In this document: positions 3,673 through 16,973 of the stretch, one piece after another
Layout: every line of letters starts with the position of its first letter
How positions within the stretch are numbered: the stretch's first letter is position 1
Virus record (IMG/VR): IMGVR_UViG_3300029102_000023
Source: a virus
Taxonomy: Duplodnaviria > Heunggongvirae > Uroviricota > Caudoviricetes
Strand: one strand, 5' to 3'
Length of the DNA: 21,745 nt
Translations under genes and position numbers: made by a program
Notes under the pieces: generated by a model
The model's input: the letters and a program-made list of their open reading frames with translations, nothing else
The model's database searches: none
Told to the model about the DNA's origin: nothing

Positions 3673-3873
3673 TCAGGCAGCTTTGTTGTTCTGTTTACCA
3701 AGTTCTCTGGCAATCATTGCCGTCGTTCGTATTGCCCATTTATCGACATATTTCCCATCTTCCATTACAGGAAACATTTCTTCAGGCTTAACCATGCATT
3801 CCGATTGCAGCTTGCATCCATTGCATCGTTTGAATTGTCCACACCATTGATTTGTATCAATAGTCGTAGTCAT
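3673..3873 (-). CDS. ral: Restriction alleviation protein Ral, 66 aa
   Basis: MTTTIDTNQWCGQFKRCNGCKLQSECMVKPEEMFPVMEDGKYVDKWAIRTTAMIARELGKQNNKAA matches lambda Ral. Confidence 0.9.
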   Translation of the reverse strand: MTTTIDTNQWCGQFKRCNGCKLQSECMVKPEEMFPVMEDGKYVDKWAIRTTAMIARELGKQNNKAA

Positions 3874-4086: not shown

Positions 4087-4668
4087 ATGAACAACTCATG
4101 GTGGCAGGAACTAATGCATTTTTTCCTGCAAGGAATGACACTTAAACAGTTGATTCATATGCTAATCATCCTGATCATATTGATTATTGTTATGCCGGTA
4201 AGCGTAAAAGAATGGATAAACCTGCATAGTCCAGAAATCCTTCCTCATTACTGGATGTATTACATCCTGTTGTTTTGCGTTAGCTATGTGCTTAACGGCG
4301 TTGTTAATTCCGCTTATCACGCTGTGACTGAAAGAATTGAGGTATTCGCTGCTCAGAAGCGCAAATCTAAAGAAGAAAAATATGTGCAAGATTTGTTTGA
4401 TTCGTTAACTCTTGGAGAAAGAGCGTATTTGGCATTCGCTGTAGCCGCTAATAACCAGCTACAAACGGAAAAGGGCGCTCATGAATCAATTTCATTGCTC
4501 AAAAAAGGACTCCTCGTTCGAAGGCCTCCTGCTGTTGGATATCCTGATACCGACCGTTTCGTTATCCCTGAAAGCTATAGACATGAGTGCTACATTAGGT
4601 TTGCCGGGAAGGCAGACAGCCTTATGGATGAACTTATCGCTCAGGATAAGCATGGCAAAAACAAGTAA
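4087..4668 (+). CDS. sieB: Superinfection exclusion protein B (membrane protein)
   Basis: 193 aa with hydrophobic N-terminal segments (LIHMLIILIILIIVMPV, YWMYYILLFCVSYVLNGVV); matches lambda SieB; antisense to the pL operon and convergent with N as in lambda. Confidence 0.9.
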   Translation: MNNSWWQELMHFFLQGMTLKQLIHMLIILIILIIVMPVSVKEWINLHSPEILPHYWMYYILLFCVSYVLNGVVNSAYHAVTERIEVFAAQKRKSKEEKYVQDLFDSLTLGERAYLAFAVAANNQLQTEKGAHESISLLKKGLLVRRPPAVGYPDTDRFVIPESYRHECYIRFAGKADSLMDELIAQDKHGKNK

Positions 4669-4684
4669 TTAGCAAATGAATTTA

Positions 4685-4957
4685 TCATCTCGCCGTCAGT
4701 TGTTTTGATTTCCGGTAGCCTGCCGCGTAAAGAGCTACGTTCGGAAGACAAGTTGAACCTTCATATTTTCTGGTCAACGTTGTCAGAGTTATCACTTCTG
4801 CTCTCATTGCTGGTTTGAGCTTGCATTGCAAGACCACTCGTGAAGGGGTTGGCCTGTGTAGCTTGTCGGAGCTGATCGCCTCCTGACTTTGCAGATTTGC
4901 GCGACGAGCTCTACGGCGAGAAGCTGCGGTGCCTTTAAATTCTGTTTTTCTGGACAT
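4685..4957 (-). CDS. N: N-type transcription antiterminator (non-lambda specificity), 90 aa
   Basis: Position directly downstream of the nutL/pL candidates; arginine-rich motif near the N-terminus (KGTAASRRRARRANLQ); strong GGGAGG Shine-Dalgarno 5 nt before ATG at 4957. The track ORF extends to 5029 but that start lacks an RBS. Confidence 0.6.
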   Translation of the reverse strand: MSRKTEFKGTAASRRRARRANLQSQEAISSDKLHRPTPSRVVLQCKLKPAMRAEVITLTTLTRKYEGSTCLPNVALYAAGYRKSKQLTAR

Positions 4958-5055
4958 GGATTCCTCCCGAATAAACTTTGGCGATGCAATCTCGAAGCTC
5001 CTCCTGAGACGGTTGCTTCGGCATTGCATCCCACAGCTTATGTGGTTGGGTGATC

Positions 5056-5393: not shown

Positions 5394-6146
5394 TTATGCT
5401 GCAAGTCTCTTAACCCAAGTCTCTCTTTTGGAGAATGGTAGAACTTGGCTTGATTCATGGAAGAGTAAGGAGAGTTGTTGCATTTGATCACCAATTGCTT
5501 CGCTGTCTATAACAACAAATCTGTTGTTATACTCCTCACTTGAAGCTTTAAGATCAATTAGTTTCCCAAGCAATGAGTAAGCACTATTCCAGCTTCCTCC
5601 GTGTTTCACGCTTGATGTAAAAACGTATTTAGGTATGTCGGTTTTTATTGTTACAGGGACGGTAATTTGATGTCCACTCAAGCCATATACGTTTTCACGA
5701 AGAGAAAGTGCGTCTCTAAGCTCTGTGTGATATAGATAATCAATAACCATACTTTCAAACTTTTCAGCTTGAACTGGCTGATACCAGTCTAACGACAAAG
5801 TTGATGCGAGTATACCAGCTCTAATTATGTTCGATGTAATCGCACCGACATCCTTTTCTGTTGCCCAAGCAATGATTTCTCCTCGAGCATTGAGTTCTGC
5901 GCCTTCTTTAAGCAGTAATTGTCGTATCTCATCAAGTCGTTTTTTGGTAAGCGAGATCCCTCTTGCCTCCATATTCATTAAGGCATCGCATCTGTCACTA
6001 ACTAAATACCTACCATTGACTTCACGGATAAAGGCACCGACATGCTCTCCATCATCACAGTAAGTGAATGGACTGATAATTCTCAAGGTCTTGCCTATTG
6101 GATGGCATTCGAAACCTAGTTGTGAGATCACTGTTGAGCACATCAT
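5394..6146 (-). CDS. Unknown protein B, 250 aa (second gene of the two-gene cassette in the rexAB-equivalent position)
   Basis: Long intact ORF; ATG at 6146 overlaps the gene A stop (ATGA), indicating translational coupling; no obvious transmembrane segments; family not recognised. Confidence 0.7.
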   Translation of the reverse strand: MMCSTVISQLGFECHPIGKTLRIISPFTYCDDGEHVGAFIREVNGRYLVSDRCDALMNMEARGISLTKKRLDEIRQLLLKEGAELNARGEIIAWATEKDVGAITSNIIRAGILASTLSLDWYQPVQAEKFESMVIDYLYHTELRDALSLRENVYGLSGHQITVPVTIKTDIPKYVFTSSVKHGGSWNSAYSLLGKLIDLKASSEEYNNRFVVIDSEAIGDQMQQLSLLFHESSQVLPFSKRETWVKRLAA

Positions 6147-6700
6147 ATTCCAAACCCCATTTGCCCCGACTCATCTTCAAGCGGTAAAGGTATTCTCCCA
6201 GAGTAAGTTATGTTCAGATGTTTACAGAAGTAATTCCAATACCCTACCAGGTCATCTGGGTTTATGTCATCTTCGATTGGAAACGCTATTCTATCACTAT
6301 AGTATCCAGCTTCTTCATAGTATACATGGTAGTGAGCACCGTAAATGATATCTTGGTACTTCGGATGATCGACCTTGTAACTATTCGTGTGTTTGTCAAA
6401 GTGATAGGTATCTACCGCGAAAACCCTCTTGTTATGATAGAAAGCAATAATATTTATTTTAGGGTAAGAAATCGGGTCATCAGGTTCTGAATCCTGATCT
6501 GGTTTCCATTTCAGTTCAAACTTTAGCCCTTGTATAGGTATACAATCCTCATCCAAGGGGATGATATGGGCTTGTAGCCACATATCAGAGCGACTTGGTT
6601 TCTGTTTCCATTTAACGCCAGAAAAGTTAACTATTTTTTTACAATAAAGTACTTTATCAACTTCTACTTGGCTTGGCTGATAATCATCTATTTTTGCCAA
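6143..6700 (-). CDS. Unknown protein A, 185 aa (first gene of the cassette downstream of cI)
   Basis: Intact ORF 39 nt downstream of the cI stop on the same strand; acidic, Tyr/His-rich, no hydrophobic segments; the track start at 6700 is a TTG codon (next in-frame ATG is at codon 40), so the true start is uncertain. Confidence 0.65.
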   Translation of the reverse strand: MAKIDDYQPSQVEVDKVLYCKKIVNFSGVKWKQKPSRSDMWLQAHIIPLDEDCIPIQGLKFELKWKPDQDSEPDDPISYPKINIIAFYHNKRVFAVDTYHFDKHTNSYKVDHPKYQDIIYGAHYHVYYEEAGYYSDRIAFPIEDDINPDDLVGYWNYFCKHLNITYSGRIPLPLEDESGQMGFGI

Positions 6701-10106: not shown

Positions 10107-10138
10107 AGGCCTGCAGGTAATCGCAGGCCTTTTTATTT
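10107..10138 (+). terminator. Rho-independent terminator (tR2-like) between ren and ninB
   Basis: Perfect 8-bp stem AGGCCTGC(10107-10114)/GCAGGCCT(10123-10130), 8-nt loop, followed by TTTTATTT (10131-10138). Confidence 0.7.
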
Positions 10139-10154: not shown

Positions 10155-10595
10155 ATGAAAAAACTAACCTTTGAAATTCGATCTCCGGCACATCAGCAAA
10201 ACGCTATTCACGCAGTACAGCAAATCCTTCCAGACCCAACCAAACCAATCGTAGTAACCATTCAGGAACGCAACCGCAGCTTAGACCAAAACAGGAAGCT
10301 ATGGGCCTGCTTAGGTGACGTCTCTCGTCAGGTTGAATGGCATGGTCGCTGGCTGGATGCAGAAAGCTGGAAGTGTGTGTTTACCGCAGCATTAAAGCAG
10401 CAGGATGTTGTTCCTAACCTTGCCGGGAATGGCTTTGTGGTAATAGGCCAGTCAACCAGCAGGATGCGTGTAAGCGAATTTGCGGAGCTATTAGAGCTTA
10501 TACAGGCATTCGGTACAGAGCGTGGCGTTAAGTGGTCAGACGAAGCGCGACTGGCTCTCGAATGGAAAGCGCGATGGGGAGATCGGGCTGCATGA
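10155..10595 (+). CDS. ninB: NinB (Orf recombination mediator), 146 aa
   Basis: MKKLTFEIRSPAHQQNAIHAVQQILPDPTKPIVVTIQERNRSLDQNRKLWACLGDVSRQVEWHGRWLDAESWK... matches lambda NinB; GGGAGAGGG Shine-Dalgarno before ATG at 10155. Confidence 0.9.
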   Translation: MKKLTFEIRSPAHQQNAIHAVQQILPDPTKPIVVTIQERNRSLDQNRKLWACLGDVSRQVEWHGRWLDAESWKCVFTAALKQQDVVPNLAGNGFVVIGQSTSRMRVSEFAELLELIQAFGTERGVKWSDEARLALEWKARWGDRAA

Positions 10596-11119
10596 CTATC
10601 AAATCAAATACGCCAGCACACGACAAGGACTGCTGGCAAACGCCGCTTTGGCTTTTTGATGCACTGGATATTGAGTTTGGATTCTGGCTGGATTCGGCAG
10701 CGAGCGACAAAAATGCTCTGTGCGCTCACTGGCTAACTGAGGACGACGACGCGCTCAATTCTGAGTGGGTAAGCCACGGTGCAATCTGGAATAACCCACC
10801 GTACAGCAATATCAGGCCGTGGGTGGAAAAAGCCGCTGAGCAGTGTATACAACAGCGACAGACGGTAGTGATGCTTGTGCCAGAGGATATGTCTGTCGGA
10901 TGGTTCAGCAAGGCTCTGGAGAGTGTTGACGAAGTTCGTATTATCACTGATGGACGGATTAATTTTATCGAACCATCGACAGGGCTGGAGAAGAAGGGAA
11001 ACAGCAAAGGCTCCATGCTGCTGATTTGGCGACCGTTCATCAGTCCTCGACGGATGTTTACTACCGTATCCAAAGCGGCATTGATGGCGATCGGGCAGGG
11101 CGTCAGGAGGGCTGCATGA
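10592..11119 (+). CDS. Phage DNA N6-adenine methyltransferase (orphan, Dam-like family), ~175 aa
   Basis: Contains the N6-adenine MTase catalytic motif NPPY (IWNNPPYSN); ATG at 10592 overlaps the ninB stop (ATGA); occupies the ninC/ninD position; no adjacent restriction endonuclease gene. Confidence 0.8.
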
Positions 11120-11292
11120 GACGACAGCGACGAAGCATCACCGACATAATCTGCGAAAACTGCAAATACCTTCCAACGAAACGCTCCAGAAATAAACGCA
11201 AGCTAATCCCAAAAGAATCTGACGTAAAAACCTTCAATTACACAGCCCACCTGTGGGATATCCGGTGGCTAAGATATCGTGCGAGGAAATGA
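11116..11292 (+). CDS. ninE: NinE, 58 aa
   Basis: [58 protein letters not shown] resembles lambda NinE; ATG overlaps the methyltransferase stop (ATGA). Confidence 0.85.
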
Positions 11293-11636: not shown

Positions 11637-11823
11637 CCCATCTCAATCCCTTCAATACCTGAAAGAAAGCATAGAGCGGGCTTCAATGTGCACAGAGTGG
11701 ATTCTATCTAGGTTTAGCGCATACAGAAGATTGCCGGTAAAGGGCATGCCAAGCAAGTCGATGCTGCATATGCAAAAGAATGCGCGCTGGAAGGTATGGC
11801 GAGAACACAGGTTATGTGGCTGA
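11629..11823 (+). CDS. Hypothetical small ORF, 64 aa (possibly part of a frameshifted ybcO-like gene)
   Basis: ATG at 11629 overlaps the end of the preceding ORF; a different frame (11718-11846) encodes ...[25 protein letters not shown] and ends in TGA overlapping the rusA GTG start, suggesting coding potential split across two frames. Confidence 0.3.
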
Positions 11824-11842
11824 AAGAGGGGGTTATTAAGGC

Positions 11843-12205
11843 GTGAATACCTACAGCATCACATTACCCTGGCCTCCGAGCAATAATCGCTATTACCGCC
11901 ATAATCGCGGGCGCACGCACGTCAGCGCAGAGGGGCAGGCATACCGCGATAACGTCGCCCGAATCATTAAAAACGCAATGCTGGATATCGGCCTGGCTAT
12001 GCCTGTGAAAATCCGCATTGAGTGCCACATGCCGGATCGCCGTCGCCGTGACCTGGATAATCTGCAAAAAGCCGCTTTTGACGCACTCACTAAAGCAGGT
12101 TTCTGGCTGGATGATGCTCAGGTCGTTGATTACCGCGTTGTGAAGATGCCTGTTACCAAAGGTGGGAGGCTGGAACTGACCATCACCGAAATGGGGAATG
12201 AATGA
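11843..12205 (+). CDS. rusA: Holliday junction resolvase RusA, 120 aa
   Basis: [100 protein letters not shown]... matches E. coli prophage RusA; start codon is GTG. Confidence 0.95.
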
Positions 12206-12999: not shown

Positions 13000-14082
13000 T
13001 TAGAACTGATAAACCAGACCTACAGCGACGATGTCGTCGGTATCAATACCAGCTGTTTTGGTAAACTTACTATCGTCAATTAAGTTGATTTTGTAATCAA
13101 CAAAAGTGGACATGTTTTTATTAAAGTAGTAAGTAGCACCGACATCGACATACTTGACTAAGTCTCGGTCACCATGAACACCAAGGTCTTTACCTTTTGA
13201 CTGAAGGTAAGCAACAGATGGACGCAGACCGAAGTCAAACTGATATTGTGCTACTGCTTCAAAGTTTTGTGCTTTGTTTGCAATATGGTTATTACCAAAA
13301 ACGGTCATATTCTGAGTTTCAGAATATGTGGTAGCCAGATAGATATTGTTCGCATCATATTTCAGGCCTGCAGCCCATACTTCCGCATTTTTGCCGGAGG
13401 CATTGAATTTGCTCTTACCATAGGCGACCTGACCGTCAGTGCGATCTGATTTAGCATAGGTTGCACCCACGCCGAATCCTTCATACTCATAAGTAGTGGA
13501 GAAACCGAAACCATCACCATTGGCTTCAGTTACGTCAGTGCGGTCATTTTTACCCTGATACTGAGCAGCAAAGTTCAGGCCATCGACCAGACCAAAGAAG
13601 TCGTTGTTACGATAAGTTGCAACACCAGTAGTGCGACCAGTCATGAACACATCTGTTTGGGTCCAGGTATCACCACCGAATTCTGGCAGAACGTCAGTCC
13701 ACGCACCGATGTCGTATGCTACACCGTAGTTACGGCCGTAATCGATTGAGCCGTAATCACCAAATTTCAGGCCTGCAAATGCAAGACGGGTTTTGTCTTT
13801 GGAAGAACCTTGAGATTCAGCACGGTTGCCTTTGAATTCATATTCCCACTGACCGAAACCAGTCAGTTGATCGTTGATTTGGGTTTCACCTTTGAAGCCA
13901 AGACGGGCATAAGTAGTATCACCATCATCTGCATCATTAGAGGAGAAGTAGTGCTTGGCATTAACTTTCCCGTATAGATCCAGCTTGTTACTGTCTTTAT
14001 TATAAATTTCAGCTGCCTGAGCAGACATCGCCATCAGTACTGATGCAGCTACAGCAGAAATTGCCACTGTTAATTTTTTCAT
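13000..14082 (-). CDS. nmpC: Outer-membrane general porin (OmpC/OmpF/NmpC family), prophage-encoded, 360 aa precursor
   Basis: Signal peptide [23 protein letters not shown] then [23 protein letters not shown]... and C-terminal ...VAVGLVYQF (terminal Phe, beta-barrel signature); antisense between Q and the lysis genes as in DLP12. Track ORF start at 14142 is an upstream in-frame extension. Confidence 0.93.
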
Positions 14083-14450
14083 TGTACGCCCTTTTTTTGA
14101 ACTTTTATTAAAAAATGATGTCACTGCGCGATAAATATTCATCTAATCAATGTGATTATTTCAAGATGTAAGTTTTAGTTTCTCATTTAATTTGTGAAGT
14201 AGATCTCTATTTTTATCTGAACCTTTTCTATCTAATCCTATTCATGGCTCTTGTCTGAACAAAAATAAATCTATTAGCTAATTTATATTAATGGCACTTA
14301 TTTATAAGTGCTCTATAATTCTTTAGCTTAATTTAAACAAACTAAAAATAACATCGGAAATTATTAACTGGTTATTTGTTGAAGTTTTCTTATGCATTTG
14401 TGGTGGTGTTTTGAACACTCGGTGGCATTCTCACAAATATCATTTAGTAG

Positions 14451-16166: not shown

Positions 16167-16646
16167 CTTATTATCCTGCATTGTTAAAAACGGCAGAATC
16201 CTATGTGACAACAATTAAACGATAGTTAAATGGATTGATGAAAATTAAAACTACACAGGTGGGCTCAGACTATTGGAGGAAGTTGGGGACACTCAGAATC
16301 CTGTGGAATGAAATAAACCGGTCTATCCGTCCATTACCCTTTTAGCTGCGCTGTATCGTCGCCGTATTCCCGCATTAACCATGACCGTAGCCCGACGGGG
16401 AATTCCTTCTGCGTGAGTGTGCGGGAATAATTAAAAACGATGCACACCGGGTTTTTACCGCGTTAATGATTCGCGGGTTTATCCCGGTGCGATGGTGGAA
16501 GAAACAGGAAGCTGTATTACAGAAAGTGCTACTACTGTATCCCGATGCGATGTATGTAATGTGAGTCAGATAATGGCACAGGATGTGGTGATGTGGCAGT
16601 CTGGAACACAGGATATATTGTCAGAATAAGACCCGTAGGAATAAAA

Positions 16647-16973
16647 ATGAAAAGACGCCTTTTACTACTTTTTCTGTTATCTGTCCTGGCAGTGGGATGC
16701 TCGCAGCAAAAAGCTGATGAGCCCCGGCAATTAGTGACGGTGTATCCACGATATCCGGAATATGCTGCAGCAAATTATATCAAGGGGCTGGTTGAGGTTA
16801 AGTTCGATATTGGTGCTGATGGGACTGTGACACGGATCGTTTTTCTCCGCTCAGAGCCTCATAATTTGTTTCGTGATGAAGTGGTGAAGGCCATGGCGAA
16901 ATGGCGATTTGAAAAGAATCGCCCCTGTCAGGGAGTGAAGAGACAATTTATCTTTACGCCGTCACGTCCTTGA
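16647..16973 (+). CDS. Lipoprotein with TonB C-terminal-like domain, 108 aa (prophage moron)
   Basis: Signal peptide plus lipobox MKRRLLLLFLLSVLAVGC; mature region YPRYPEYAAANYIKGLVEVKFDIGADGTVTRIVFLRSEPHNLFRDEVVKAMAKWRFEK resembles the TonB C-terminal fold motif pattern; domain call is from motif resemblance only. Confidence 0.6.
   Translation: MKRRLLLLFLLSVLAVGCSQQKADEPRQLVTVYPRYPEYAAANYIKGLVEVKFDIGADGTVTRIVFLRSEPHNLFRDEVVKAMAKWRFEKNRPCQGVKRQFIFTPSRP

Follow-up and report, generated by a model that had tools for sequence, protein, structure and literature searches.

An orphan Dam-like N6-adenine DNA methyltransferase gene of phage type in a lambdoid nin region

The question raised by this locus is why a gene for an adenine methyltransferase should reside in the nin region of a lambdoid phage, which site its product would modify and at what stage of phage development it would be made. 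The window considered here is the whole analyzed stretch of DNA (21,745 nucleotides, IMG/VR record IMGVR_UViG_3300029102_000023). A previous inspection of its letters and open reading frames (hereinafter, the sequence-only reading) proposed an orphan N6-adenine DNA methyltransferase (MTase) situated in the nin region in place of lambda ninC/ninD, and this core statement was borne out. The gene and its immediate neighbors are listed below.

10592-11119, plus strand: phage Dam-like N6-adenine DNA methyltransferase gene, 175 aa, near-identical to VT2-Sakai orf32 / M.EcoVT2Dam
10155-10595, plus strand: ninB/orf recombination mediator gene (PF05772, 1.1e-54), 96.8% identical to lambda up to 10595
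11116-11292, plus strand: ninE gene (PF05322, 1.8e-41), its start overlapping the MTase stop

The MTase frame opens with ATG at 10592 and closes with TGA at 11117-11119, giving 528 bp and, upon translation, a product of 175 aa with the NPPY motif intact at residues 68-71, exactly of the kind described by the first reading. The longest frame mechanically drawn over this region begins at GTG 10532; ATG 10592 was chosen as the start because it is preceded by GGGGAG, the resulting 175-aa length matches aligned homologues, the RefSeq model WP_000153286.1 agrees and the ninB stop is overlapped. The latter codon (TGA, 10593-10595) shares two letters with the MTase ATG (10592-10594), while the MTase stop is overlapped in the same way by the ninE ATG (11116-11118), so that the ATGA junctions from which translational coupling on both sides had been proposed are indeed present. 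SD-like elements, GGGGAG and AGGAGG, are located 10 nt upstream of the MTase ATG and 7 nt upstream of the ninE ATG, respectively. Gene packing of this ATGA type is typical of nin regions (PMC8022706). Downstream of ninE, Pfam search recognized NinX and then RusA.

Assignment of the product to a protein family is straightforward. The Pfam profile PF05869 “DNA N-6-adenine-methyltransferase (Dam)” was matched with E 3.7e-65 and 219.1 bits over positions 1-167 of 169 (cut-off 28.1 bits), and the NCBIfam equivalog TIGR01712 “phage N-6-adenine-methyltransferase” with E 1.2e-79 and 265.6 bits over positions 1-165 of 165 (cut-off 97.05 bits), meaning that both curated thresholds are exceeded over the full model length. 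As judged by these two profile matches, it is confirmed that the frame is no chance ORF. The same protein matched phrog_111 (PHROG 111, “DNA methyltransferase”) at 8.3e-88 and orphan-methyltransferase models of PADLOC at 1.6e-19. Homology might have pointed to something other than a DNA methyltransferase, a doubt expressed along with the initial proposal; PF05869, TIGR01712 and phrog_111 all designate adenine or DNA methyltransferases. The catalytic residues were inspected in an alignment of the MTase with 31 homologues sharing 59-98% identity (32 sequences), which has 47 invariant positions including D34 and N68-P69-P70-Y71-S72; none of the 47 is lost in this protein. Two segments are of primary interest.

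10793-10804, plus strand: codons of catalytic motif IV, N68-P69-P70-Y71, invariant in the 32-sequence alignment and also in HP1 and T1 Dam
10688-10702, plus strand: codons of L33-D34-x-A-A37, putative AdoMet-binding (motif I-like) segment, distinguished by conservation

Within the second segment L33, D34 and A36 are invariant in the 32-sequence alignment, and L33, D34 and A37 are invariant when HP1 and T1 Dam are compared; its designation as the AdoMet-binding region is putative, follows the motif order and concerns a portion of low model confidence. Blocks conserved with the HP1 and T1 methyltransferases comprise D-W-TP, LD..A, NPPYS, D-S-WF and R..FI..TG..N.K.

Sequence search for a solved structure related to the MTase detected none, and an AlphaFold2 model was built from the 32-sequence alignment. 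Its quality is moderate overall (mean pLDDT 75, pTM 0.76), with residues 31-64 being weak. With its length close to 170 aa and a Rossmann catalytic core, the protein looks like a small single-domain enzyme, in which no separate target-recognition domain was recognizable; according to the model, it is essentially a bare catalytic core. Recognition of DNA is then probably accomplished by the N-terminal D-W-TP segment, the 35-64 region and the 121-140 hairpin (R..FI...TG.....N.K), of which the first and the last are conserved and the second is poorly modeled.

The site of modification was regarded as unknown by the sequence-only reading, and this point is outdated. The protein is identical in 174 of 175 positions (99.4%) to the product of orf32 of phage VT2-Sakai, the sole difference being D51 here versus A51 there, in a loop that the alignment shows to be variable and acidic. 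Since no other ORF of VT2-Sakai carries a methylase annotation, orf32 was equated with M.EcoVT2Dam; orf4, tried as a candidate for the published “VT-2 Dam”, was rejected as a DUF551 protein. M.EcoVT2Dam of prophage VT2-Sa was reported in 2001 to be a GATC-specific m6A methyltransferase (Radlinska and Bujnicki, 2001, as cited in PMC6602927, PMC7556043, and PMC7139368), and citing papers put on record GATC activity for three diverged members of PF05869, namely VT-2, HP1 and T1 (PMC7556043; PMC7139368). By analogy with the near-identical protein described in this literature, the MTase most likely methylates adenine of GATC, i.e., the same site as host Dam. The window itself contains 73 GATC against 102 expected from a Markov model (ratio 0.72), which is within the range of other 4-bp palindromes, and this mild deficit by itself speaks neither for nor against GATC specificity. 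DpnI/MboI-type assays reveal methylation of GATC, and extra, weaker sites would escape them. Literature search combining the nin region with adenine methyltransferase returned no match.

The position of the gene can be defined relative to lambda. Lambda homology (96.8%) extends over P, ren and ninB, ends at 10595, that is, at the ninB stop, and resumes at 11123 inside ninE; the corresponding lambda interval holds ninC and ninD, so that the replacement of these two genes suggested earlier is positionally exact. Homology with VT2-Sakai (97.7%) is limited to 10585-11289, covering the MTase gene and ninE. From the limits of both homologies it follows that the MTase gene is a clean mosaic cassette, and its borders are marked by a short repeat.

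10585-10595, plus strand: upstream copy of the 11-mer GGGCTGCATGA, at the ninB/MTase boundary and mosaic breakpoint
11109-11119, plus strand: downstream copy of the same 11-mer, at the MTase/ninE boundary

Nowhere else in the window does the 11-mer occur, and its two copies form a perfect direct repeat that flanks the MTase gene, with 0.48 matches expected at up to one mismatch. It is also found at the lambda ninB/ninC junction and at the VT2-Sakai ninB/orf32 junction, and the breakpoints relative to lambda coincide exactly with the junctions carrying it. It may therefore serve as a conserved junction for cassette exchange; it also provides NinB and the MTase with the same ending, ...R-A-A-stop. 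Between ninX and rusA (about 11757-11846), RefSeq annotation of matching genomes places a truncated DUF1364 pseudogene fragment, left over from another cassette of the nin region and again pointing to mosaic exchange.

Distribution of the gene is wide. At 95-100% nucleotide identity it occurs in 244 phage records, including wild lambda-like phages, HK140, Sf101 and many Stx1/Stx2-converting phages, always between NinB and NinE or beside NinB wherever the flanking genes are named, and it is 100% identical in the deposited phage genomes ev207, ev017, PhiR57_1 and PhiR63_2. Among complete E. coli genomes, 1566 of 5426 (29%) carry it in up to five copies per genome, under the PGAP name “phage N-6-adenine-methyltransferase”. 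Protein-level relatives were found in 1906 phage records, mostly from Escherichia, Klebsiella and Vibrio phages and less frequently from those of Salmonella, Lactococcus and Campylobacter. Over its entire length the window shares 99.9% identity with a lambdoid prophage present in E. coli UPEC_U013, ABU 83972 and CFT073, by which it is placed in the CFT073/ABU 83972 lineage as a lambdoid (lambda-type, non-Stx) prophage. Copies of the gene with 100% identity are also present in E. coli Nissle 1917 and ATCC 11775. In Nissle 1917 (NZ_CP022686, 3795-5400) the same prophage lies next to icd, its integrase is truncated and ISEc52 replaces the left arm, hence this copy is probably defective; the version present in the window keeps exo/bet/gam, as do ABU 83972 and CFT073.

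Several other genes of this prophage deserve mention. Directly downstream of the cI-like repressor gene, where lambda has rexAB, there is a two-gene cassette (5397-6146 and 6146-6700, both on the minus strand) coding for a DUF1828 protein and a weakly DUF6978-like protein, with PADLOC PDC-M24 matches of 4.7e-10 for the B subunit and 4.8e-4 for the A subunit; this pair is a candidate that may act as a prophage anti-phage system expressed in lysogens. The pL region contains genes for anti-restriction protein Ral (3676-3873, minus strand; PF11058, 1.7e-48) and superinfection exclusion protein SieB (4087-4668, plus strand). The presence of ral means that the prophage has a second way against type I restriction, unrelated to the Dam-like MTase. 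Between the Q antiterminator and lysis genes, an OmpC-family porin gene (13000-14142, minus strand, i.e., opposite; a 380-aa ORF) is named “porin OmpC” in matching genomes, and next after the lysis cassette the annotation of the matching prophage places a gene for an iss/bor-type serum-resistance lipoprotein; these two are lysogenic-conversion cargo.

The time of MTase synthesis can be approached from the arrangement of the operon, in which the order of elements is O-P-ren-terminator-ninB-MTase-ninE-ninX-rusA-Q. This places the gene among delayed-early genes of the lambdoid nin region: it belongs to the pR operon, lies between the replication genes and Q, is located past a terminator and is joined to its neighbors by ATGA overlaps. 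Two elements would control its accessibility to transcription.

10107-10138, plus strand: tR2-like intrinsic terminator in the ren-ninB interval, upstream of the MTase gene (hairpin 10107-10130 followed by a T-tract)
4688-5029, minus strand: N antiterminator gene (PF25694 N_peptide, 9.7e-33), needed for read-through of the terminator preceding the nin genes

The terminator is composed of an 8-bp GC-rich stem followed by TTTTTATTT (fold -16.4 kcal/mol, z = -2.4), at a position which we take to be that of lambda tR2. Promoter scan of the DNA revealed promoter-like sites no more frequently than in shuffled sequence and no convincing promoter belonging to the MTase gene itself. Being placed behind this terminator in a repressor-controlled pR operon, the gene is expected to be expressed only after induction or infection, once N acts; by analogy with lambda biology, the MTase should be made in lytic growth and not in lysogens. 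An effect on host gene expression in lysogens, which the sequence-only reading had envisaged, is thus unlikely: the operon is repressed, no promoter convincingly belongs to the gene itself, and host Dam already keeps about 99.9% of GATC sites methylated (PMC6602927). The accompanying statement that the enzyme has no restriction endonuclease partner held: none is found among the 50 features annotated in the matching prophage, the neighbors being ninB, ninE, ninX and rusA, and the PADLOC matches are to orphan-MTase models.

Taken as a whole, the locus is very probably best explained by a single-domain, AdoMet-dependent orphan phage Dam (PF05869/TIGR01712) directed to GATC, carried as a mosaic cassette between ninB and ninE, expected to be made in lytic growth only and likely serving for topping up GATC methylation. 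The enzyme would complete methylation of phage DNA replicating faster than host Dam can follow, yielding fully methylated progeny genomes that would resist m6A-sensitive GATC-cutting restriction enzymes and would be a poor substrate for MutH, which nicks at unmethylated GATC. Virion DNAs of P22 and lambda are under-methylated at Dam sites, possibly as replication outruns host Dam (PMC8022706), and a phage-encoded MTase would close this gap. The benefit could lie in shielding the DNA, in new hosts, from GATC endonucleases that are m6A-sensitive or in MutH avoidance; one paper citing VT-2 Dam says of phage Dam enzymes that their function “is still not well understood”. A rather unlikely version shifts the main purpose from anti-restriction to blinding of MutH (and SeqA) during lytic growth. 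Un- and hemimethylated phage GATC would then be instantly converted to the fully methylated state, and the heteroduplexes arising through the neighboring recombination genes (Red, NinB/Orf and RusA) would be spared mismatch-provoked cleavage; if true, diverged lambdoid phages would thereby be free to recombine with each other. The same low probability is given to its variant, in which weaker secondary sites are modified beyond GATC, these being conceivable because the MTase is devoid of a target-recognition domain.

An enzyme active on adenine with specificity broader than or different from GATC, which would confer wide anti-restriction like Hia5 or M.EcoGII, appears quite improbable. The absence of a recognizable target-recognition domain would suit it, the restriction-protection assays usually applied to phage Dam are blind to additional sites, and non-specific phage adenine MTases do exist according to the accounts given in PMC3299994, PMC5778455 and PMC7556043; these, however, belong to other families, Hia5 being Dam-related with DPPY/FxGxG and M.EcoGII falling into class beta as described in PMC5778455, while citing papers ascribe GATC activity to such diverged PF05869 members as VT-2, HP1 and T1, and a strain with two copies of M.EcoVT2Dam displayed no extra methylated motif (PMC6602927), where the gene may be silent. 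That the enzyme acts physiologically on RNA instead of DNA and requires a partner subunit, as in the other “GATC Dam-like” MTase of Stx prophages, we regard as very improbable, given that this precedent is an MT-A70/DPPW enzyme of another family and another locus. The view of the gene as an inert, decaying remnant of a cryptic prophage deserves equally little credence: the matching Nissle 1917 prophage does have a truncated integrase and an IS insertion, and prophage MTases are often silent in lysogens as stated in PMC5778455 and PMC6602927, but the frame is full-length, every invariant position is intact, and the gene is preserved at 100% identity in ev207, ev017, PhiR57_1 and PhiR63_2 and at a level of at least 95% in 244 phage records. 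It is almost inconceivable that the MTase is the modification half of an unrecognized restriction-modification or other defense system nearby. SieB, Ral and the PDC-M24-like gene pair are indeed encoded in the prophage, but elsewhere: some 4 kb separate the candidate defense genes from the MTase gene, and they belong to a different operon on the other strand, whereas the neighbors of the MTase are standard nin genes, hundreds of phages and about 1500 genomes show the same ninB-MTase-ninE order without a nuclease, and the PADLOC class is that of orphan MTases.

The orphan phage Dam reading, which we prefer, describes a gene that is already known and very common; the finding is real and correctly identified, and at the same time ordinary. 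Its discovery value is small: the standard pipeline names the MTase, about 29% of complete E. coli genomes carry it, and GATC specificity of a relative differing by one residue was reported in 2001. What retains interest is the biological part that a second GATC methylase plays for phages whose hosts are Dam+ and the way in which GATC is read by a 175-aa enzyme lacking a recognition domain.

Comparison with known systems delimits the family to which the MTase belongs. Its closest counterpart, VT2-Sakai orf32 (AP000363, nt 16434-16961), likewise codes for 175 aa and is also situated between a ninB-type gene and ninE, with DNA 97.7% identical across the MTase gene and ninE; VT2-Sakai has a ninB allele different from the lambda-like ninB of the window, and the prophage described here is non-Stx. 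Dam of Haemophilus phage HP1 (orf13, 173 aa; 38% identity, E 5e-33), cloned as a Dam methyltransferase according to papers citing this work (PMC7556043; PMC7139368), has size, family and core motifs in common with the MTase and likewise belongs to an early operon, of which orf13 is the last gene ahead of a terminator. It differs in originating from a P2-like phage of another host, in the genomic context and in the C-terminal tail. Coliphage T1 Dam (237 aa; 33% identity, E 8e-27), cited in the same two papers as a purified and characterized phage DNA methyltransferase, shares the catalytic core, whereas its N terminus is longer by about 45 residues, a 14-residue insertion is present and T1 is a virulent phage.

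Outside this family, likeness to other enzymes is limited. Within the phage Dam enzymes, homology to cellular Dam is confined to those of the T-even phages (PMC6602927; PMC7556043; PMC7139368). E. coli Dam and T4 Dam (alpha class, PF02086) possess DPPY and FxGxG motifs and a dedicated DNA-recognition domain, in contrast to the MTase with its NPPY and no such domain; Pfam search found no PF02086 match in the MTase, structural alignment gave 6-8% identity, and the attributes of that family (MethyltransfD12 homology, DPPY, FxGxG, Dam-type DNA-binding domain) are missing. The MTase is unrelated to host Dam beyond the common fold, and papers citing VT-2 Dam treat the GATC specificity of phage and cellular Dam as convergent. 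Hia5/Hin1523 (PMC3299994) were tried as members of PF05869 and rejected, Hia5 and its relatives being Dam-related with DPPY/FxGxG; the relaxed MTase of Serratia phage OS31 was rejected too, as it groups with ARM81ld_p56 and phiP27-type proteins (PMC7556043), and no link from Hia5/Hin1523 or the OS31 enzyme to PF05869 was found. The MT-A70-type MTase of Stx prophages (M.EcoGV / M.EcoPA8orf6770P) resembles the gene studied here in being likewise a prophage-borne orphan of the same phage group annotated as a GATC adenine MTase. This enzyme requires the partner PNB-2 and prefers 16S rRNA (PMC10810198), and its identification with the present gene was rejected: it represents another family with a DPPW motif and is encoded together with a partner gene (gp5/gp6) at another locus of the prophage, whereas the MTase of the window has no match to the MT-A70 Pfam domain, carries NPPY and is preceded by the gene for NinB.
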